DNA from: Deltaproteobacteria bacterium
GTDB lineage: Bacteria > Desulfobacterota > Desulfobacteria > Desulfobacterales > ETH-SRB1
DNA length: 64,000 nucleotides
Reading direction: 5' to 3'
Assembly: GCA_030272815.1 (NCBI GenBank)
Contig: JAJSZT010000007.1
Coordinates: 31,319 to 95,318 of the forward strand
The notes under the pieces were generated by a model. It was not told where the DNA came from. It worked only from the letters and a program-made list of their open reading frames with translations, and did no database searches. A program made the position numbers and the translations under genes. How positions within the stretch are numbered: position 1 is the stretch's first letter; each line of letters opens with the position of its first letter. Of this stretch, positions 1-18,322 are shown piece by piece.

Positions 1-1098
1 AAACCAAAGAGCGTTAATTTTAAGGGACGTGTGCAGGCAAGGTACACCTACATAGAGAATGGCGACCTCAGTAATGTGACTTACCAAAAGGCATTTGATC
101 GAGAGGAGTTTGATGGCTTCTCCATCAGGCGTGTACGTCTGCGATGGTATGGCGAAGTTATCGACAAATGGAAATACCATGTCCAGGTCAGTGTTGACGG
201 TGACAGTAATGCCGACAGTATAGATTCTTCCTTGCCGGATTATGCGCTAAGGAAAGACGATGTCGGACTAAAGCTGCAGGATGCCTATATTACCTATGCT
301 TATCATCCTTACTTCAATATAACGGTTGGTCAGTTCAAGTCACGCTTTTCACCTTCATACCTTGTTGCAGGGCCTACCCTCCCTCTGTGTGAGCGTCCGC
401 TTGTTATTGATAAACTCTCCAGAAAGCGTGAAATTGGTATAAGCTTTGAAGCAGCCAAGAACGGTGCCTTTGACGGCAGGGGCCACGGAGGCAAACTGCA
501 TGACAAACCTTTCTACTACGCAGTAGGTTTATATAATGGCAACAGTTTCAATAAAATGCAAAATGACAATGATAACCTTATGGCAACCGCCATGGTTGTT
601 TACAGGCCGTCAAAATATATAAATTTCGGCATCAGCTATGCTTACGACCAGACCGGATATGATTACGAAACAACTGTTCTTGGAAGCGCTTTTGAATCTG
701 AAGATTATGGCGCTTATGTTTTTGACGTAAAGGACGGAGTAGTAGGCAAGCGCCTGAACATATGGGATTTCAACTCAGCGTTAGATATTGGACTATTTCA
801 TGCCCAGATCGAATTTGTACAGCAACACGGTCACGGATTCAAACGCGCTTACGGCTATGGAATACAGGGACAGTATGACCTGACCGACAACTTTCAGCTT
901 ACCGCCCGGTATGACGAATTTGATCCAAATGTAGATGTTGATGACAGTTTTGACAGCCGCTGGTACACTGTCGGATGGAACTGGTTTATTCACAAGCAGG
1001 ATATTAAATGGCAGGTCAATTATACAGTAAGAAATGAAATGCATGGATATCATGAAGACAATGATATTCTGGTAACTCATTTTCAGATACTTTTCTAA
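1..1098 (+). CDS. Outer-membrane porin (phosphate-selective porin O/P-like), 5' end outside the window
   Basis: The frame is open from nt 1 (KPKSVNFKGRVQARY...). The sequence has a beta-barrel-like alternating pattern and ends ...HFQILF with a C-terminal Phe. A hairpin terminator follows. Confidence 0.5.
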   Translation, partial: KPKSVNFKGRVQARYTYIENGDLSNVTYQKAFDREEFDGFSIRRVRLRWYGEVIDKWKYHVQVSVDGDSNADSIDSSLPDYALRKDDVGLKLQDAYITYAYHPYFNITVGQFKSRFSPSYLVAGPTLPLCERPLVIDKLSRKREIGISFEAAKNGAFDGRGHGGKLHDKPFYYAVGLYNGNSFNKMQNDNDNLMATAMVVYRPSKYINFGISYAYDQTGYDYETTVLGSAFESEDYGAYVFDVKDGVVGKRLNIWDFNSALDIGLFHAQIEFVQQHGHGFKRAYGYGIQGQYDLTDNFQLTARYDEFDPNVDVDDSFDSRWYTVGWNWFIHKQDIKWQVNYTVRNEMHGYHEDNDILVTHFQILF

Positions 1099-1107
1099 GC
1101 AAAAAAC

Positions 1108-1143
1108 AAAAAAACCCGGGTCGATTTGGCCCGGGTTTTTTTA
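1108..1143. terminator. Bidirectional rho-independent terminator between convergent porin genes
   Basis: aaaaaaaCCCGGG-tcgatttgg-CCCGGGttttttt: a GC stem flanked by an A-run and a T-run. Confidence 0.7.
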
Positions 1144-1172
1144 TTCTAAGAATATTTTTTTAACACAAAGCC

Positions 1173-10571: not shown

Positions 10572-11120
10572 ATGAAAAAACAACAAGACGATCTTAAAAG
10601 GCAGCTTAGCCAACCAGCCCCAGCAGCTGACCCCCATAGGCATGCGCATGCCAACTGCGGTAACCAACCGACAATGCCCCACCGTAATACGAAAGTCAAG
10701 GCTCAGCGCATCGAAAAAAAACCACTATCACCCGATCGCATCCGAAAAATCACCTCAAGTTTTGCCTTTATCGAACATCGCTTTTTGCGTCAGGGTTTCT
10801 GGAGCAGCCTCAGCCACCATGAGCTTTTACTGTATCTGTTTCTAGTGCTGGTCTCCGATCGTAACGGACTATCCTACTACTGTTACGATAAAATCTGTTC
10901 GCTTTTGCAAATCACGGTCGACGAGTATATCCTCGCCAGAGATCTGCTGATTGAAAAAGATCTGATTGCTTTTAATGGCAGTCTTTTCCAGGTATTAGCG
11001 CTGCCTCAAAAACCTCGATCCTCGTCTCCCGGAGCACTGAAAACCGCCAAGGACATGCAAACACATGACCCGGCCACCGTCCATCAACTCATCGCACATT
11101 CATTTGGGAAAAAAACATGA
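10572..11120 (+). CDS. Hypothetical protein with a possible winged-helix C-terminus, second gene of the RIT operon
   Basis: Starts at MKKQQDD. The C-terminus (LSHHELLLYLFLVLVSDRNGLSYYCYDKICSLLQITVDEYILARDLLIEKDLI) resembles replication/DnaD-like wHTH segments. Its stop overlaps the next start (ATGA). Confidence 0.35.
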   Translation: MKKQQDDLKRQLSQPAPAADPHRHAHANCGNQPTMPHRNTKVKAQRIEKKPLSPDRIRKITSSFAFIEHRFLRQGFWSSLSHHELLLYLFLVLVSDRNGLSYYCYDKICSLLQITVDEYILARDLLIEKDLIAFNGSLFQVLALPQKPRSSSPGALKTAKDMQTHDPATVHQLIAHSFGKKT

Positions 11121-12343
11121 CTGACACCACAGATCAAAAAGGGCCATCTGAAAAATTAAGCCCCAATTACGATGATGCTGTCTACAAGCATCTAAAGCAG
11201 GCCATTGGAGATTATCTGCAATGGATGAAATCGGTCGGATATGCTCGTAAAACCCGTCAAAGTTATCAAGCGCAGTTAAACCAATTTCTTTGCTTTATCA
11301 AAAGCAACAAAATTAGCCGACAACAATTTTTTACTTCAAACAGCCTTGAAGGCTTTAAAAAAATCACTGGGCAAAGCAGGCTGCCGGCCATCAATGGACT
11401 CTCACGCTATTTATTTTCCCAAGGCCAAATACCACAGCCTTTAGACCAAAGCACACAGCGCATTGATTTGCCGAAAATCTACGAAGACTATCTGGCGTAT
11501 CAGCAAACCCACCGGCAGGCAACCGCACGCCTCATATCAAGTATCAAAAGAGTACTGGCGGCTTTTGATTATTACCTGCAAACGCATAAAATTGATCTTG
11601 GCGCATTAAAAATAGAACAAGTAGATGCTTTTCTGGCAGAATTTTTGGCACCCTTTGCAGCGGCCTCATGCAGAATCTACCGCTGCAGGCTACGCGGTTT
11701 TTTAACGTATTTATACCATGAGCGCAACGTCATAAAAACAGATCTTGCCCCTCTTGTGGTCGGCCGATGTGAATATGCTCAGGCCAAACCACCTAATTTC
11801 TTACGGCCTGAAGAAATTGAAAAGCTGTTTGCCGGCTTAACCCTTCGCAGTGCATCCGATATCCGCACCTACGCCCTGGTGCACCTGGCCTACACGATGG
11901 GACTGCGCCCCAAAGAGATTAGCCGAATCAGCCTCGACGAAATAACTTTTAGCACACAGCAGTTAAGGCTTACTGATCGAAAAGGCAATAACCCTTTTGA
12001 GCTTCCCATGCCCGAACATACCGCCAAAGCCGTTGCCGCATACGTGATCGGTGTCAGACCCAAAAGCGAGCACCGCACCGTTTTTTTAACCATCCCGCCC
12101 CCCTTCCGACCCATGAGTTCCAATGCGGTGGGATACCATATCACCAAAGCAATGCGAAAGGTCGGCCTGAGCTCGACGGCCTATTGGTTGCGTCATACCT
12201 ATGCGCAAAACCTGCTGGAGTCCGGTGCCTCAATCTTTGAGATCAAAGAGATGCTCGGACATGACAAGATCGAGTCCACCAAACTCTACCTGCATGTACA
12301 CCTCAAACTGATGCGAAAGGTACTTTTCGATGAAACATTTTGA
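11117..12343 (+). CDS. Tyrosine recombinase, RitA-like (408 aa)
   Basis: Has an N-terminal SAM-like core-binding region. The catalytic region is MGLRPKEI...WLRHTYAQNLL...LGHDKIESTKLYLHV. Confidence 0.85.
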   Translation: MTDTTDQKGPSEKLSPNYDDAVYKHLKQAIGDYLQWMKSVGYARKTRQSYQAQLNQFLCFIKSNKISRQQFFTSNSLEGFKKITGQSRLPAINGLSRYLFSQGQIPQPLDQSTQRIDLPKIYEDYLAYQQTHRQATARLISSIKRVLAAFDYYLQTHKIDLGALKIEQVDAFLAEFLAPFAAASCRIYRCRLRGFLTYLYHERNVIKTDLAPLVVGRCEYAQAKPPNFLRPEEIEKLFAGLTLRSASDIRTYALVHLAYTMGLRPKEISRISLDEITFSTQQLRLTDRKGNNPFELPMPEHTAKAVAAYVIGVRPKSEHRTVFLTIPPPFRPMSSNAVGYHITKAMRKVGLSSTAYWLRHTYAQNLLESGASIFEIKEMLGHDKIESTKLYLHVHLKLMRKVLFDETF

Positions 12344-13304
12344 AAGCTTTATGGCCTCGCAACTGCAAGAATATGCCTCCTACCGCAGGGCACTGGGCTA
12401 TGCCCAAAAAGGCATCAAACCCTCGTTGTTGGCTTTTGATAGATACCTGATACAAGAAAATGCCACTCGGGATCAGCTTCAGCCGGCTTTTTTTCTACAG
12501 TTAAGAGCCAAGATCAGTGACCACCCCAATACGGTCAACAGGATCCTGTCGGCGCTTCGCAGCTTCTTTCAATTTTTAGTGCGCCGGCGCATCTGTGAGG
12601 ATAACCCGCTCAAAGATATCCCGCCGTTGCCCGAGCGTTACTTTGTCCCTTTTGTTTTTTCCCTCGAGCAAACCGATCTGCTGCTTGAGGCGGTGTGTAA
12701 TAATATCAGAAAATCTGAAAAGCATTTGCTATTTGACATGGCCATTTATCTGGCCATCGTGATGCTGGCGCGATGCGGCATGCGAATCAATGAGCCTTTA
12801 CGGCTTCACTGTCATCACTACCGTGCCGATGAGGGCAGTGTTTATATCCAAAGAACCAAATTTAGAAAAAACCGCCTGATTCCACTGCCCATAGCCGTGC
12901 TGGCTGAAGTCGAAAACTACCGGGCCGCCCGCCAGGTTTTGTGCCCTGGAGATCAAAACCCCTACCTGCTGGCCGGTAGAAGACTGGGGCCCATTAAAGA
13001 CTATCATATCCGCGCCGTCTTTCATCAGGCGGTCAAAGATATTGGACTCAGCCGCCCGAAACAAACCATCGGCAACATCACTTTCGGTAAGCCGATCCCT
13101 CACAGCTTAAGGCATGGATTTGCCATTAACACCTTGAATCAGATCAAAGCCCGGGGCAAATCCCCTCAGCAGGCCCTGCCGGTTTTGGCCACTTACATGG
13201 GTCATCGTAAATACCAGTACACCGGCGCATACCTCAAAGTCAAAGATGCCAAAGATATTCCAGGATTAATCGCCTTTACCAAATCGCAGTTGGATGTCAT
13301 ATGA
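12330..13304 (+). CDS. Tyrosine recombinase, RitB-like (324 aa)
   Basis: Catalytic region CGMRINEPL...HSLRHGFAINTL...MGHRKYQYTGAYLKV. The gene overlaps both neighbours. Confidence 0.85.
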   Translation: MKHFESFMASQLQEYASYRRALGYAQKGIKPSLLAFDRYLIQENATRDQLQPAFFLQLRAKISDHPNTVNRILSALRSFFQFLVRRRICEDNPLKDIPPLPERYFVPFVFSLEQTDLLLEAVCNNIRKSEKHLLFDMAIYLAIVMLARCGMRINEPLRLHCHHYRADEGSVYIQRTKFRKNRLIPLPIAVLAEVENYRAARQVLCPGDQNPYLLAGRRLGPIKDYHIRAVFHQAVKDIGLSRPKQTIGNITFGKPIPHSLRHGFAINTLNQIKARGKSPQQALPVLATYMGHRKYQYTGAYLKVKDAKDIPGLIAFTKSQLDVI

Positions 13305-14320
13305 GACTTTCTACCTGTATCCACCAGTTTTTTGAAAAATATTTGCCCCGCATCAAAGGGGTCAGCACCCATACCATCAAAGCCTATCGGGATACCTTTA
13401 AACTGTTTTTGCCTTTTGCCGCCAATTACCACGGTATCAAAGTCGCATCGCTGTCCCTGGATCACCTTACCCCGCAACTAATCCTGGCTTTTTTGGATTA
13501 TCTTGAGTCAGAACGCAAAAATACGCCTAAAACCCGAAACCATCGCTTGGCTGCCATCAAATCGCTGGCCAAAATGATCCGCTTTATGTATCCCAAAAAA
13601 TCAGCGCTCATGGAAAAAATTATGGGCATTCCCCAAAAACGCACCCAAAGACCGCTGATTGGCTTTTTGTACCCCGAAGAATTCGATCAAGTCTTAAATA
13701 CCGTCGACCTGAACAAATCCGAAGGCTTTCGCGACTACACGATCTTACATCTGCTCTTTGACTCCGGAGCCCGCGCCAGTGAAATCGCAGCACTCAAACT
13801 TGACTACTTTAATCCCCAACAAAAAACCCTGGCCATCTTAGGAAAAGGCAACCGCTTCCGACAAATCGAGTTATCTGCCACAACTGTAAGGTTGATTAAA
13901 ACCTATATTGTCCGATACCGCCGAGCACCAAAGCCGGCATACCAGGAGCGACTGTTTATCAGTCAACACGGCAAACAGTTGACTCGCCATGGCATCTACC
14001 GCCTGTGCCGAAAGTATCTACGCCAAGCCTTACCCGCCAAAAGGCTCACAGTCCTCAATCCGGTACATAGCTTTCGGCACGCTTGTGCGATGAATATGCT
14101 CGCCAAAGGCTATTTATTATCGGAAATTAGAAATCACTTGGGTCATGAAGACATCCAATCCACATCGGTGTATCTTCAGCTGGACGTACCTCGTAGAAGA
14201 AAAATCCAGAAGAAGTTTACCCAGGACACCCACTCGTTATTGCTCCGCAATGCCGAGATAGAAGAACTGATCGATCAAAAAGATAAAGATAGTATAATGG
14301 AGTGGCTTGACAGTCTTTAA
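13301..14320 (+). CDS. Tyrosine recombinase, RitC-like (339 aa)
   Basis: Catalytic region SGARASEIAAL...HSFRHACAMNML...LGHEDIQSTSVYLQL. Confidence 0.85.
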   Translation: MRLSTCIHQFFEKYLPRIKGVSTHTIKAYRDTFKLFLPFAANYHGIKVASLSLDHLTPQLILAFLDYLESERKNTPKTRNHRLAAIKSLAKMIRFMYPKKSALMEKIMGIPQKRTQRPLIGFLYPEEFDQVLNTVDLNKSEGFRDYTILHLLFDSGARASEIAALKLDYFNPQQKTLAILGKGNRFRQIELSATTVRLIKTYIVRYRRAPKPAYQERLFISQHGKQLTRHGIYRLCRKYLRQALPAKRLTVLNPVHSFRHACAMNMLAKGYLLSEIRNHLGHEDIQSTSVYLQLDVPRRRKIQKKFTQDTHSLLLRNAEIEELIDQKDKDSIMEWLDSL

Positions 14321-14728: not shown

Positions 14729-15169
14729 TTATTTTCCACAACAATGCTTATACTTCTTACCACTTCCGCAAGGACAAGGCTCATTTCTACCAACTTTTCT
14801 TTTATTTACAACAGTAAATCTTCTGTGTGAAACATTATCGAATGTGTTTTCTTCCTTTTCAACATATTCATCATCATCATCATCATCATCATCGTAAGCA
14901 TATTGCATTTTATCATATTCTCGTCTGTCAAATATCTGCTTAGCAATTGTCACAGCAGAGATGATAAAGGCGAATACAAAAGTAGCACCGATACAAAGAA
15001 CAGAAGACTGAGATACTGTTACAGGAAGTATCAAAGAAAGTAGATATCCAGCCGCAACAAATGCTGCCGTAGAAATTGCTATTAAAAGTACAATGCAAGC
15101 AAGGAAGACTAAAATTGAAATTATTGTCTTGATGATAGAGCCCCCAGTCAGGATTTGTTTACTATGCAA
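14729..15169 (-). CDS. Membrane protein with a poly-Asp tract and a C-terminal SEC-C motif
   Basis: Three predicted TM helices, then [11 protein letters not shown] encoded by (GAT)8, and a C-terminal [13 protein letters not shown]. Confidence 0.55.
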
Positions 15170-15507: not shown

Positions 15508-15711
15508 TCAACTCGACACGGAGTGCCTTGCTTCTTCGCTCCCTTCAAAGACAGCCAATTCCTCGTGTAGGCGCGCAATCATTTTACGAATGCCAGCCTT
15601 CGTGAATCCTTTCGAACCGATGGGGTGGGTCTGTTGCAACCGCTCCAATCGTTCTTCAAGGATACGCATTTCTTCTTGCGCTTTTTCGTATTCTGTCAGA
15701 TTAAAAATCAT
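15508..15711 (-). CDS. Small helical protein (67 aa), possible antitoxin-like partner
   Basis: Overlaps the stop of the upstream gene by 4 nt. The sequence is charged and coiled-coil-like. I recognise no family with confidence. Confidence 0.3.
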   Translation of the reverse strand: MIFNLTEYEKAQEEMRILEERLERLQQTHPIGSKGFTKAGIRKMIARLHEELAVFEGSEEARHSVSS

Positions 15712-16157
15712 AGTTTGACCTCCACAAGTCCTTTGCGCCGGCCATCGGCTTCACGTGTGCGACTGAAAAACTCAATCCACTCATTCCAGTCGGTTTCGTC
15801 TTCCGCAGCAAAGATTTCTTCAGGGCGACGGGTCAGAATCATTTCTTCCAGTTCTAATGCCGCCTCAATTTCTTGCTCAATTTGGTGTTGGAAATCCGGA
15901 GGAAGCAGAATAACCGCGTCAATGTCGTCCGGTTCAGCCTTCGCTGTGACGAAACTTCCATCAATCAGCAGACGTAGACCACCAATCAGTCGAGCCAACT
16001 CTATCCAACGCCTAATTCGAATAACCAGCCGTCTACGCCGCCGAGACGATGAACCAAATCGAAACATGACTTCAGTTTTCGAAGCCAGGTACAGCCCTTC
16101 TTCAGGCAGGTAACCATCGGCGCAAAATTTAGGTATTATCGAATCCTGCGGCTCCAT
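15708..16157 (-). CDS. Nucleotidyltransferase-fold-like protein (DUF6932-like)
   Basis: The segment LLIDGSFVTAKAEPDDIDAVILLP resembles a minimal NTase / DUF6932 signature. I chose the start at MEPQDS (16157). Confidence 0.4.
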   Translation of the reverse strand: MEPQDSIIPKFCADGYLPEEGLYLASKTEVMFRFGSSSRRRRRLVIRIRRWIELARLIGGLRLLIDGSFVTAKAEPDDIDAVILLPPDFQHQIEQEIEAALELEEMILTRRPEEIFAAEDETDWNEWIEFFSRTREADGRRKGLVEVKL

Positions 16158-16355
16158 ATGAACTCCTTGATGTCCGATAAACATATTATAGCAGAAAAGA
16201 CGGTAGATGCAACCCAAGCAAGTCCGTCGGTCGTACATAACTTGTAGCCGCCGAACGCCTCCGCATCACCTACAAGCAGGGAAACGGGTATTTGTAAATG
16301 CTACGTTTTGCTCAAACTTGGCAAATGTTACAGCCGTCCGACCCTGCTTGTAAGA

Positions 16356-17685
16356 GTTCCGGGTAAAGGCACCGGTTACCCGGCGCCCTCCCCACAGACC
16401 CGTACTTGAAGGATTCCACTCATACGGTTCCTCGGTATGCTAACGCACTCAGGATTCCCTAATCAGCGAAAACATGACCAAACAGTCTGGATAGAAATAC
16501 GGCGCGCGCAACCCTCGACTGCCGGATTCACTATTGACTTTCTTTCATTAACGCCTCGCTGCACGCAGCTACTACGTGTCGGTCGTGTTATCCCGCAGTG
16601 TAAGATTCACGTTTCCGTAAGCCCCCGTTTTCATCCCGGACGGTCGGATTTCCCGAGTCCGGTTGGTGACCATAGCTTTCCCCATGAGCCTTCCCTGATG
16701 ACGCCGAAACTTAAGTGCTGACTCACATACGCCCCTTGCATTATCGGTTTACTCATAGCTCGACATTTAATGGCGGTCACCAGCTTATTCGGTTCTGAGT
16801 CCGAGGCTGTGCCACTTCGATGCCCGCCAAGCGCCAAGAGCCCCTTTGCCCGCTCAAGGTGTTACCCCTTACGGCGAGACGTCTGGCGTCCCGTCAGAGG
16901 GAGTTACCCCTCCTTCATCACTCATACTGGCTCATGCGCCAGACCAAAACCCTCTCCCCGGCTTCGCTCGTCACTGTTCCGGTTAGTCTTCGCAGGTTGC
17001 TGTCAGCCCCTGCTGGGAGATGGCCCTTCCCAACGTTATCTCCGTAATCTTTGTAAAGGTGCTTGTACCCATACCCCGCGGTGTTTCCCTGGTGCACTCA
17101 ACCGTTTCTTCCCATCGGACAACGGCCTCACGTCAAGCCTGACACGTTCGGCACACGCAAACAACCCCAGTAATGCAATTTCAACTGGGAGCACTTTTTC
17201 GAGGCTGCAGTAATTCCTTAATGTTCAGGCTCCCTTACTCACTTGGCCCCCCGATTGCACCCACCGCTATACCCACTTTATGTGAACATAGGGCGGCCGG
17301 GCCGTTTACACCACGCAATGGACGTGAGGTTACCCTTCACGAACTGTGGTATCACTACATACCCGAATCGAGCAATTGGTATGACGGGACTTTCACCCGC
17401 TAGATTAAGGCCTTGTCGGCCGCTACCTCAGACCCCGGTGGTGTCCTGAATACTCGCCATAGCGCACCCAGGGCTGCTGCCTTCCAGTGCATACAAACTG
17501 TCGGCGTTTCCTCGCAATTTTTCGATCATGAGTTTATCCTGCTGTCCACAACTATACATTTTTCGGGGCTCAATCACACAGCCTGCATTCTTGTTCCGCC
17601 CGGCTTCGGACTCTCCTTACGGAGCTTACCCTCGGACGTCACTATTGACCTGCTGGCTAAGCTTTTGTCAAGTGGGACTTCGCAC
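16356..17685 (-). ncRNA. ORF-less group II intron-like structured RNA (3' end well defined, 5' end uncertain)
   Basis: On the minus strand, a domain V-like 34-mer at 16430-16397 reads GAACCGUAUGAGUGGAAUCCUUCAAGUACGGGUC. A domain VI-like helix follows, with a GUAA tetraloop and a single bulged A (complement of 16364) 8 nt before the ...GAAC end at 16356. Candidate 5' GUGCG/GUGUG sites are at 17685, 17467 and 17156. The sense strand is purine-rich and GC-rich, with no maturase ORF. Confidence 0.45.
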
Positions 17686-17820
17686 TATGCGATCACCCAC
17701 TGGGTAACAACATCGAATTTCATCCCGCCTTGCGGGAATCCCAACGATTCGGATTTATCTGGACACGAGAATGCACTGGTTAGCGGTCGAAGTATCAGTT
17801 TCTTGTGGGGAATAACCGCC

Positions 17821-18234
17821 TTATCGTTGTGCATGTAGGCGGCGTAATTCATCCTCCATATGCTCTCTTTCCATTGTAAGTCTTTCAAGCCATCGCTCCT
17901 GATCTTCGATTGTCCTCCACGCATCTGGATCAGTCTCAAGCATAGTTCTTAACTGTTCAATTCCGCGGCGAGCTTTTTCTTGGTCGTTTTCATTATTCGC
18001 CAAATGTTGCTGCAATTCTTCAATTCTTCCTGTAATTTCATCGAGCGGAACCTTCTGTGTCGTTGTAGAATTTCTCCCGTCGGTTTGTACTTCTCCAAAC
18101 TCTAAAACAAAAATGCCAGGTATCCCAATTTTCCTGACTGTAAGTCCCGAATACAAGTTAAATGCTACAAGAACGATTAGAAGCAGAGTACTCACAATCC
18201 ATAATAATCCCTTGTATTTATTCTCATTACTCAT
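17821..18234 (-). CDS. Hypothetical membrane-anchored coiled-coil protein
   Basis: N-terminal TM segment (LLWIVSTLLLIVLVAFNLY) followed by a charged helical region. Confidence 0.4.
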   Translation of the reverse strand: MSNENKYKGLLWIVSTLLLIVLVAFNLYSGLTVRKIGIPGIFVLEFGEVQTDGRNSTTTQKVPLDEITGRIEELQQHLANNENDQEKARRGIEQLRTMLETDPDAWRTIEDQERWLERLTMEREHMEDELRRLHAQR

Positions 18235-18322
18235 AAGCTCTCCTCTTCCTATTTGATTACAGCTCTATTGTACCTAATTGGGCATCAATTATCTAAACAT
18301 GGGGTATTTTCCGCTAACGCCC

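Follow-up and report, generated by a model that had tools for sequence, protein, structure and literature searches.

In a 64-kb window of genomic DNA from a Deltaproteobacteria bacterium (contig JAJSZT010000007.1 of assembly GCA_030272815.1; the window is the whole stretch of 64,000 nucleotides that was analysed, and all positions refer to it), a GC-rich region at approximately 16200–17700 is read here as a degenerate, recombination-scarred twintron between two minus-strand genes: a structurally intact group II intron without an open reading frame (ORF), hereafter B, nested in the shell of a second, dead group II intron, hereafter the host. We assign this reading a probability of roughly 0.85. 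B has ends of its own, with domain 1 of the host (domains 1–6 are abbreviated D1–D6) on its 5′ side and a linker, D5 and D6 of the host on its 3′ side, and uninterrupted copies of the outer sequences exist elsewhere. The first-pass annotation of the same DNA had considered a single intron of 1330 nt, which does not hold because 17427..16485 is an independent and complete intron nested in the D1 region of the host; its accompanying hint that the RNA is composite was on target, as there are two nested introns. The middle 943 nt had not been recognized as a separate element with its own ends, and a D5-shaped hairpin at 16665..16632, better conserved than the one described, had been missed.

The boundaries of B were defined by comparison with loci carrying copies of the B family in metagenome contigs and in contigs of metagenome-assembled genomes (MAGs); these loci are given L-numbers and sequencing runs X-numbers. 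In BLAST comparisons of the window with these loci, homology starts repeatedly at 17424–17430 and extends to approximately 16605; beyond a variable region it resumes and stops at 16485. These boundaries recur in dozens of loci, and the flanks beyond the two ends are unrelated among loci. Occupied and empty versions of the same site were also found. The site GAGCGCAAGCGAAC^CAUUCGAUGAGG carries B in L019, L056 and L099 and is empty in L044, L057 and L067; the 3′ side of the same GAGCGCAAGCGAAC site reads ^CAUUCGAUG, and the comparison of empty with occupied copies fixes the boundary to the base. Likewise, B interrupts the D5-loop site GGUGGA^AAUCUCC in L145, L151 and L135 but not in L089, and a site in the host D6 in L021 but not in the window. 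The host D1 site that B occupies in the window (...GGGGUCUGA^) is uninterrupted in L021, L122 and read contigs, which read ...GGGGUCUUAGACCAGGUCAUG... across it; where B starts in the window, L021, L122 and many read contigs, free of B at this position, continue ...GGGGUCUUAGACCAGG... instead. Copies of B measure approximately 910–945 nt across the family. The D4 of B, of about 170 nt, contains no ORF, so B is non-autonomous, and no reverse transcriptase (RT) ORF was found inside any B copy among the loci examined.

Alignment A1, comprising 41 full-length B copies with a mean identity of 59%, gave an RNAalifold consensus of 197 base pairs forming six domains, D1–D6, in the standard order, and compensatory changes were observed in 133 of these pairs. 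The proportion of paired cells is 96.0%, compared with 81.7% after shuffling and 35–43% with slid partners, and the covariation score is 0.479, compared with 0.200 and 0.075–0.092, respectively; none of 500 shuffles reached the observed value of either measure. The copy of B in the window forms 187 of the 197 consensus pairs and deviates at six of 366 conserved columns, with four of the six changes being compensatory, and on this modelled fold it looks intact as a ribozyme. The motif GGGGUAAC...GCAAAGGGGCUCU in its D3 resembles one in the D3 of the Ll.LtrB intron.

The exon-binding sites (EBS) of B covary with the flanking intron-binding sites (IBS). The EBS1 loop (A1 columns 380–386) pairs with the last 6–7 bases of the copy's own 5′ flank at 211 of 246 positions, compared with a mean of 105.8±7.8 and a maximum of 132 in 2000 permutations of the flanks, and the EBS1/IBS1 sequences involved are diverse (for example GAUCUCU/GGAGAUC, GUUCGCU/AGCGAAC and CUCCCCU/GGGGGAG). 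EBS3 (A1 column 455) and the first base of the 3′ flank form a Watson–Crick pair in 34 of the 41 copies, with all four types represented. The signal for EBS2 is weaker overall: at one fixed register, the candidate loop (columns ~323–328) pairs with flank positions −10 to −15 at six of six positions in ten of the 41 copies and at five of six in nine further copies. By this covariation, B recognizes its exons in a IIB-like manner through EBS1 and EBS3, and only probably through EBS2. The covariation of EBS and IBS with the flanks is direct evidence that B was inserted by reverse splicing.

In the D5 of B, a lower helix is separated by a 2-nt CC bulge from an upper helix of 4 bp, which is capped by a GAAAU loop; this hairpin is invariant in nearly all of approximately 100 loci and in A1, where it is helix 34. 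Covariation is seen in the basal helix of D6 (helix 35), and the sequence UCUAUCC in the 3′ tail is invariant in A1. Within a GGGGG/CU[A]UCC helix, A16492 can bulge 7 nt before the last base, at columns that are invariant and give no covariation signal. The 3′ end reads ...CUAUCCNNAC, with AC or AU in 39 of the 41 copies. In place of GUGYG, most copies begin with GGAGCRGCC and those of the clade of the window with GGUAGC or GGGAGC; this boundary is fixed by the comparison of empty sites together with the EBS1 register, which also ruled out as the 5′ end of B a GUGCG found a few bases upstream of GGAGC. Such GUGCG or GAGCG sequences upstream of B mark where other introns, invaded by B, begin.

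The composition of the region agrees with that described in the first-pass annotation. The GC content is 0.51–0.59 across 16200–17700 and 0.37–0.47 in the flanks. The three minus-strand frames contain 28, 26 and 25 stops in approximately 526 codons, a Pfam scan of their translations at E≤10 gave no match, and the plus-strand ORFs are overlapping, rich in Pro, Arg and Ser, and short; a decayed RT ORF in the middle of the region was therefore rejected. The absence of an RT or maturase gene or remnant, as stated in the annotation, applies to the stretch (Pfam) and to the whole 64-kb window. The window contains neither an RT nor a sibling copy of the stretch, and family copies are abundant in other contigs, with the compensatory changes described above. 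The group II models of Rfam, which the annotation had proposed to run, gave three matches, all on the minus strand and in the expected order: a significant, full-length match to RF02005 (group-II-D1D4-6) at 17681..17423 (96.1 bits, E = 8e-26), a match in the lenient scan to RF02003 (group-II-D1D4-4) at 17402..17219 (43.9 bits, gathering score 49) and one to RF00029 (Intron_gpII, D5/D6) at 16432..16357 (37.2 bits, gathering score 40, E = 4e-5). All three models are limited to fragments. The RF02003 match lies in the first ~180 nt of B, and although the copy in the window is below the gathering threshold, relatives exceed it, with 61.6 bits in L021, 52.8 bits in L145 and L151, and 50.8 bits in L070 and L086. 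The proposal that B is a fragment of rRNA or of another known large RNA was rejected because Rfam at E≤10 over 15800–18300 gave only group II sub-models and no other RNA.

The D5-like 34-mer with an AAC triad and the following D6 helix with a GUAA loop and an ...AAC end at 16356, both described in the annotation, are present and belong to the host. The GUGCG at 17685, its first candidate for a 5′ end, directly precedes the RF02005 match, whereas its alternative 5′ ends are internal, with 17467 in the host D1 and 17156 in the D1 of the inner intron. The repeated motif reported near 17650 and 16538 was also confirmed: the 11-mer GTCAATAGTGA occurs exactly twice (minus strand, 17649..17639 and 16538..16528), with 0.05 matches expected in the whole window, one copy being in the host D1 and the other in a clade-specific insert of the D6 of B. 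In addition, CGAGGGT comes 6–13 nt after GTCAATAGTGA.

The host is represented in the window by its first 258 nt (segment A) and by 129 nt at its 3′ side (16484..16356), that is, by proximal D1 and D5/D6 only. Its 34-nt D5 hairpin, GAACCGUAUGAGUGGAAUCCUUCAAGUACGGGUC, reads GAACCGUAU...GUACGGGUC, with AAC in place of AGC and A opposite G, and compared with L021 it has one extra base and a U–C mismatch in the upper helix; the form GAACCGUAU...GUACGGG is common to all four host-family copies seen (the window, L021, L122 and L152). Segment A shares 95% identity with L008 and 75% with both L021 and L122; for the 3′ segment the identity is 88% with L152 and L122 and, over its D5 part (16436..16390), 91% with L021. 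In L021, the same 5′ segment is accompanied by 250 nt more RNA, a 498-amino-acid RT ORF (RVT_1, 6e-33), D5 and D6, with B inside D6. L122, from a Desulfobulbaceae MAG, contains a host copy of approximately 810 nt without counting its B insert, for which the D1 site differs from that in the window; this host copy showed no RT ORF. The host in the window has lost about 450 nt or more: it lacks roughly 500 nt that L122 retains, as well as the 250 nt plus the RT ORF of L021. With distal D1 through D4 gone, it cannot be a functional ribozyme and is a decayed shell. The suggestion in the first-pass annotation of a decayed intron fits the outer element, and its suggestion of a trans-dependent ORF-less intron fits the inner one.

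Two further sequences surround the host. An element of approximately 87 nt directly upstream travels with the host intron in four loci (the window, L008 1395–1481, L021 1079–1165 and L122 566–639), and the sequence beyond it differs among them. A helix in this element covaries, being AAUCG/CGAUU in the window and AACCA/UGGUU in L021, and the element may represent a structured 5′ element or a site preferred as a target. On this upstream side, the summed k-mer depth in cold-seep runs is very high up to ~17824 and zero beyond. On the downstream side, a repeat with a 13-bp long-range hairpin is present in high copy in cold-seep metagenomes and is absent from L008 and L021. Contigs that join this repeat to 17686 without the host intron were found in DNA runs X3 and X4 and in RNA run X30, skipping approximately 1327–1329 nt and carrying 2–3 extra bases at the joint. 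These contigs show that unoccupied copies of the outer repeat exist, and the outer repeat is a third repeated layer. The features are collected in Table 1.

Table 1. Features of the nested introns and adjoining repeats (positions in the window; A1 columns refer to the alignment of 41 B copies)
Feature	Position	Strand	Remarks
Inner ORF-less group II intron B	16485..17427	minus	943 nt; starts GGUAGCGGCC, ends UUUCUAUCCAGAC
B D1	17417..17032	minus	A1 columns 16–495
B D2	17031..16936	minus	A1 columns 496–593
B D3	16933..16838	minus	A1 columns 596–697
B D4	16836..16667	minus	A1 columns 699–895
B D5	16665..16632	minus	A1 columns 897–931; CAACCGGACUCGGGAAAUCCGACCGUCCGGGAUG
B D6	16627..16489	minus	A1 columns 944–1163
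EBS1 of B (UCAGGC, D1 hairpin loop)	17137..17142	minus	pairs with 5′ flank GUCUGA, 17433..17428
EBS3 of B (U)	17071	minus	covaries with first 3′-flank base across the family
3′ tail of B, UUUCUAUCCAGAC	16485..16497	minus	predicted bulged branch-point A at 16492
Host 5′ segment A	17428..17685	minus	GUGCG 17685..17681 and proximal D1; RF02005, 96.1 bits
Host linker C	16484..16431	minus	part of host 3′ segment 16356..16484
Host D5, AAC triad	16430..16397	minus	RF00029, 37.2 bits together with D6
Host D6, GUAA loop, ends GGAAC	~16393..16356	minus	RF00029
Conserved element upstream of host	17686..17772	minus	99% identical in L008; recognizable in L021 and L122
Downstream repeat, long hairpin CUUACAAGCAGGG...CCCUGCUUGUAGG	16208..16355	minus	depth 3,700–8,600 in X3 and X4

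The catalytic triad of both introns is unusual. Group II introns are expected to carry an AGC triad in D5 (CGC in IIC introns), with its G in a G–U wobble, and this triad is homologous to the AGC of U6 small nuclear RNA and is treated as almost invariant. All copies of B have AAC there, and its middle A faces G-A. As AAC is present in the D5 of all four host-family copies, one of which has the intact 498-amino-acid RT ORF, and in every copy of B, it is a conserved lineage trait and not a sign of decay. The pairing of the middle triad base varies among the hosts: RT-encoding host D5s have G–U in L052 and L107 and G opposite A in L145, L151, L089 and L134, and the host-family D5s have A opposite G in the window, L021, L122 and L152. 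A purine–purine pair at the catalytic position thus seems common in these sediment lineages. RF00029 gave no match to the D5/D6 of B even at E≤10, and standard surveys based on D5 or RT would therefore miss the B family.

The family is abundant and widely distributed. Sampled 31-mers of the stretch are present in many cold-seep and marine-sediment runs, and more than 1000 short contigs per run align with the window, with a summed k-mer depth of up to ~33,000; such contig numbers and depths indicate that the sequence belongs to a multi-copy family. A 22-mer probe taken from the deepest bin (AATCCGACCGTCCGGGATGAAA, 16655..16634) has matches in at least 120 metagenome contigs, which come from soils and sediments as well as from freshwater and groundwater. 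In the genome scan, it was found in 32 contigs, all from MAGs, which include those of Desulfobulbaceae, Desulfobacteraceae, Syntrophaceae, Nitrospirota, Chlamydiae, Planctomycetota, Myxococcota, Spirochaetaceae and Holosporales; contigs with the archaeal labels Methanophagaceae and Sifarchaeum are also among them. The closest relatives of the copy in the window (L062, L074 and L116) are 91–92% identical to it and have unrelated 3′ flanks. The archaeal-labelled locus L152 (QENJ01000213.1, Candidatus Methanophagaceae) is a 2-kb contig binned to ANME-1, in which B is 94.5% identical to that of the window; this represents either a recent cross-domain transfer or a mis-binned repeat, and the window itself looks bacterial.

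Most of the B copies whose flanks could be read lie within other group II introns, which they occupy preferentially near the 5′ end, in the D5 loop or in D6. B is found 5–14 bases past the 5′ end of another intron (GUGCG^, GAGCG^, GUGCGAAUU^ and GAGCGCAAGCGAAC^), in the D5 loop of RT-encoding introns (L003, L016, L065, L135, L145 and L151), just after D5 or in D6 (L021, L052 and L134) and inside another B (L152), and group II-type RT ORFs adjoin B in 17 loci. The long-read MAG MFD03804 contains three host copies (L135, L145 and L151), each with B in D5, and the 3′ flanks of the host differ between L135 and L151. For L020, L023 and L103, the surroundings are AT-rich and show no clear intron context, and the copies in L025, L072 and L075 are truncated at the 5′ end. 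Tandem head-to-tail copies occur in DNA in L037 (~221–1156, minus strand, and the next copy) and L078 (293–1340 and the next copy); their junction, in which ...UUUCUAUCCAGAG is followed directly by GGUAGCGGCC..., mismatches the EBS1 of the downstream copy, so that these tandem copies are not products of ordinary retrohoming; they may derive from intron circles or recombination. The RT-encoding introns of the AAC type or the GAGCCGGAU type may be partners for the trans-mobilization of B.

B-family words were found in 24 metatranscriptomes, and the depth of B-family RNA contigs peaks over D5 and D2–D3. One contig of 261 nt from RNA run X27, with a depth of 102 similar to that of neighbouring B contigs, aligns at 16493–16662 and 17338–17424. 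It joins ...UUUCU (to 16493), a U and GGGAGCGGCC (from 17424), so that the 7-nt tail is missing. The reading of A16492 as U, the missing tail and the joined 5′ end together are the signature of reverse transcription across a lariat branch, and the junction is suggestive of a lariat-branch read from a close relative of the B in the window. The same truncated junction was not found in 153 DNA loci, nor among the joints listed for the DNA runs, outside of which there are 20 further joints; in DNA, the head-to-tail junctions of L037 and L078 retain the complete tail, unlike the X27 contig.

These observations may be combined into the following scheme. B would be transcribed with its surroundings and would fold into a six-domain ribozyme that splices by branching at A16492. 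The lariat, together with an RT/maturase acting in trans, would then reverse-splice into DNA sites chosen by base pairing, and the likely suppliers of the RT would be the RT-encoding introns that B parasitizes. Recombination between B copies would subsequently delete host sequence, giving the order A–B–C–D5–D6 and the non-cognate 3′ junction of the window. A broader proposal is that the host type, including its RT-encoding copies, and the B family are two related lineages that are catalytically active with AAC and a purine–purine pair, and that B, also without GUGYG, is an obligate 'intron of introns' of global abundance. On this view, B would live as a hyperparasite at the 5′ ends and in the D6 and D5 loop of other group II introns, would borrow their RT, and would have gone unnoticed in surveys built on RT genes or canonical D5 models. 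We hold this wider proposal with slightly less than even confidence.

Several points weigh against the twintron reading or the activity of its inner intron. In the window, the EBS1 of B pairs with GUCUGA, the last six bases of segment A and the IBS1 for B, in a register shifted by one base and with one G–U wobble, IBS2 and IBS3 do not match, and the U of EBS3 faces U16484 and is unpaired. While B shows the six domains, the D5 shape and the EBS/IBS pairing of a group II intron, and a 3′ end of AC or AU in 39 of 41 copies with a predicted branch A, it lacks two classical hallmarks, the AGC triad and the GUGYG 5′ end, and model introns are strongly impaired in vitro when the G of the triad is replaced by A. 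Where precisely the 5′ splice site of the host lies is uncertain, since GUGCG is absent at the aligned position in L021 and these 5 nt are also absent from some read copies, and the 87 nt upstream of the host are not explained by the twintron model. No RT gene is present in the 64-kb window, the rest of the genome being outside this search. The X27 junction rests on one contig from one RNA run and may reflect DNA contamination or a rare rearrangement, contigs cannot assign RNA to the window locus, and no splicing of the window copy was observed.

The state of the junctions can be accommodated by the twintron reading. The pairing of EBS1 with GUCUGA fits a real insertion of B into the host D1, and the mismatches of EBS3 and EBS2 indicate that the 3′ junction is probably secondary, having arisen by deletion or recombination. 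In L008, which is 94–99% identical to the window and has the same A–B junction, the 3′ end of B is fused to distal D6, a deletion in this sibling locus that is flush with the end of B. In L152, B is followed by linker C, D5 and D6 and stands behind a fragment of another B, with an identity to the window of 88–94.5%. The arrangements in L008, L152 and the window are what would be expected to remain after recombination between B copies within one host, with loss of the intervening sequence. For Methanosarcina acetivorans, nested homing into other introns balanced by recombinational deletion has been described (PMC4424553).

Among the other explanations, the one we regard as the least improbable, and still as unlikely, is domestication: B in the window would no longer move as an intron but would serve the cell as a structured RNA or ribozyme, for instance as a regulatory RNA or as a hydrolytic endonuclease like HYER, and the second D5/D6 might be an alternative 3′ module as in C.te.I1. 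It would account for the very good preservation of B within a dead host, for the recurrence of the order B–C–D5–D6 in L152 with 88–94% identity, for the high RNA levels in metatranscriptomes, especially over D5, and for the non-canonical triad. However, the covariation of EBS1 and EBS3 with the flanks shows recent reverse-splicing insertion across the family, the contexts are mostly other mobile introns and not conserved host genes, the closest relatives have unrelated 3′ flanks, and the intact geometry of the predicted branch site favours branching over purely hydrolytic chemistry. The twintron reading is also preferred over the very improbable view that the whole nest is inert debris, in which both introns are dead and the copies have spread passively by recombination, repeat duplication or other mobile elements. 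The AAC triad and the non-GUGYG 5′ end, the scrambled L008 and L152, the tandem copies in L037 and L078, the high-copy nature of the flanking sequence itself and the lack of an RT gene in the window agree with debris, but passive spread cannot yield dozens of EBS1s complementary to their own flanks (211 of 246, against ~106) or the covariation of EBS3; moreover, the invariance of D5 across phyla and the covariation of the other helices indicate purifying selection on the RNA, and host introns with an AAC D5 keep an intact RT ORF.

Hardest of all to sustain is the single ORF-less intron of approximately 1330 nt (17685..16356) with a large D4 or D2–D3 and its only D5 at 16430. The stretch is indeed bracketed by GUGCG at one end and by D5/D6 ending in AAC at the other, and contigs skipping ~1327–1329 nt between the flanks exist; against this, the middle 943 nt recur with their own ends, D5/D6 and EBS/IBS covariation in more than 150 unrelated contexts, and other host-family copies without B at this site carry approximately 500 nt of different sequence there. 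Two further possibilities were rejected. The first, that B is the D1–D4a part of a larger RT-encoding intron with its conserved hairpin as the D4a/RT binding site, was set aside because unrelated flanks follow its 3′ end and the RT ORFs that follow belong to host introns with their own D5; the second, a circularly permuted intron, because the halves of the upstream D5 are completed after the 3′ end of B.

The nested arrangement resembles systems that have been described before. As summarized by Zimmerly & Semper (2015), the nested group II introns of M. acetivorans, comprising ORF-less and RT-encoding members (Dai & Zimmerly, 2003), share with the present case the site-specific homing into other group II introns, the nesting several layers deep in non-coding DNA and the ORF-less members that presumably rely on related RTs in trans (PMC4424553). 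B is set apart by its AAC D5 with A opposite G-A, its GGAGC 5′ end and its size of about 910–945 nt, by its occurrence in sediments, soils and groundwater across numerous bacterial phyla and in a few archaeal MAGs, and by its targets seen here, which are RNA-structural hot spots of the host (5′ end, D5 loop and D6). In Thermosynechococcus elongatus, ORF-less introns are mobilized and spliced by the RTs of related introns (Mohr et al., 2010; PMC2882425), and Trichodesmium contains a group II twintron (PMC4649490). The former are like B in that non-autonomous ORF-less introns proliferate through a trans-acting intron-encoded protein, which for B is inferred only, and the latter is like the window in an architecture that requires sequential splicing. 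The B family differs from both in being pan-phylum. The introns of T. elongatus and Trichodesmium reportedly have canonical AGC D5s and GUGYG ends and are confined to one lineage.

HYER elements, as reported by Liu et al. (2024), are said to be ORF-less, multicopy, IIC-derived hydrolytic endonucleases smaller than B. B shares with them the character of an ORF-less, group II-derived multicopy RNA without a resident RT; in contrast to HYER, it has EBS1, EBS2, EBS3, a full D6 with a bulged A and the flank covariation typical of retrohoming. The position of a D5 directly 5′ of the D1 of B in several loci looks similar to circularly permuted group II ribozymes (Roth et al., 2021; PMC8637638), but this D5 is part of a host intron into which B has inserted, and in B itself the domains follow the standard order from D1 to D6. 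Zimmerly & Semper noted that overlooked ORF-less bacterial introns would need atypical D5s (PMC4424553), and the atypical D5 of B fits this foreseen exception. No description of the B family or of the AAC triad was found in a literature search of incomplete coverage, an absence that proves little.

The DNA adjoining the nest contains other features. On the plus strand, three consecutive, overlapping tyrosine-recombinase (Phage_integrase) genes at ~11114..14320, which look like a 'recombinase in trio' element, lie approximately 1.4 kb from an operon on the minus strand. This operon consists of a DUF6932 gene (15508..16184, Pfam 6e-26) followed by an overlapping gene for a 67-amino-acid protein, and it has its own AAGGAG ribosome-binding site and a TATAAT-like box at ~16190. 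Its DNA and RNA are present in cold-seep runs at a lower depth than the introns, and the two genes could form a toxin–antitoxin-type module. A minus-strand gene at 14729..15169 encodes a small protein with two predicted hydrophobic stretches, nine Asp residues followed by Glu and a C-terminal SEC-C motif.

In conclusion, twintron nests with recombinational deletions are already known, and the main interest of this locus is the conserved AAC hairpin and the life of B within other introns. An evidently mobile and large AAC family, recorded here in over 150 contigs across many phyla and environments as well as in many metatranscriptomes, would be a natural test of how far the catalytic core can vary. 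Introns that invade introns and sit in the catalytic hairpin of their host represent a clear case of hyperparasitism among retroelements, which is testable through EBS/IBS covariation. Kilobase-long, GC-rich stretches without ORFs in sediment MAGs may often be such nests, which break short-read assemblies.

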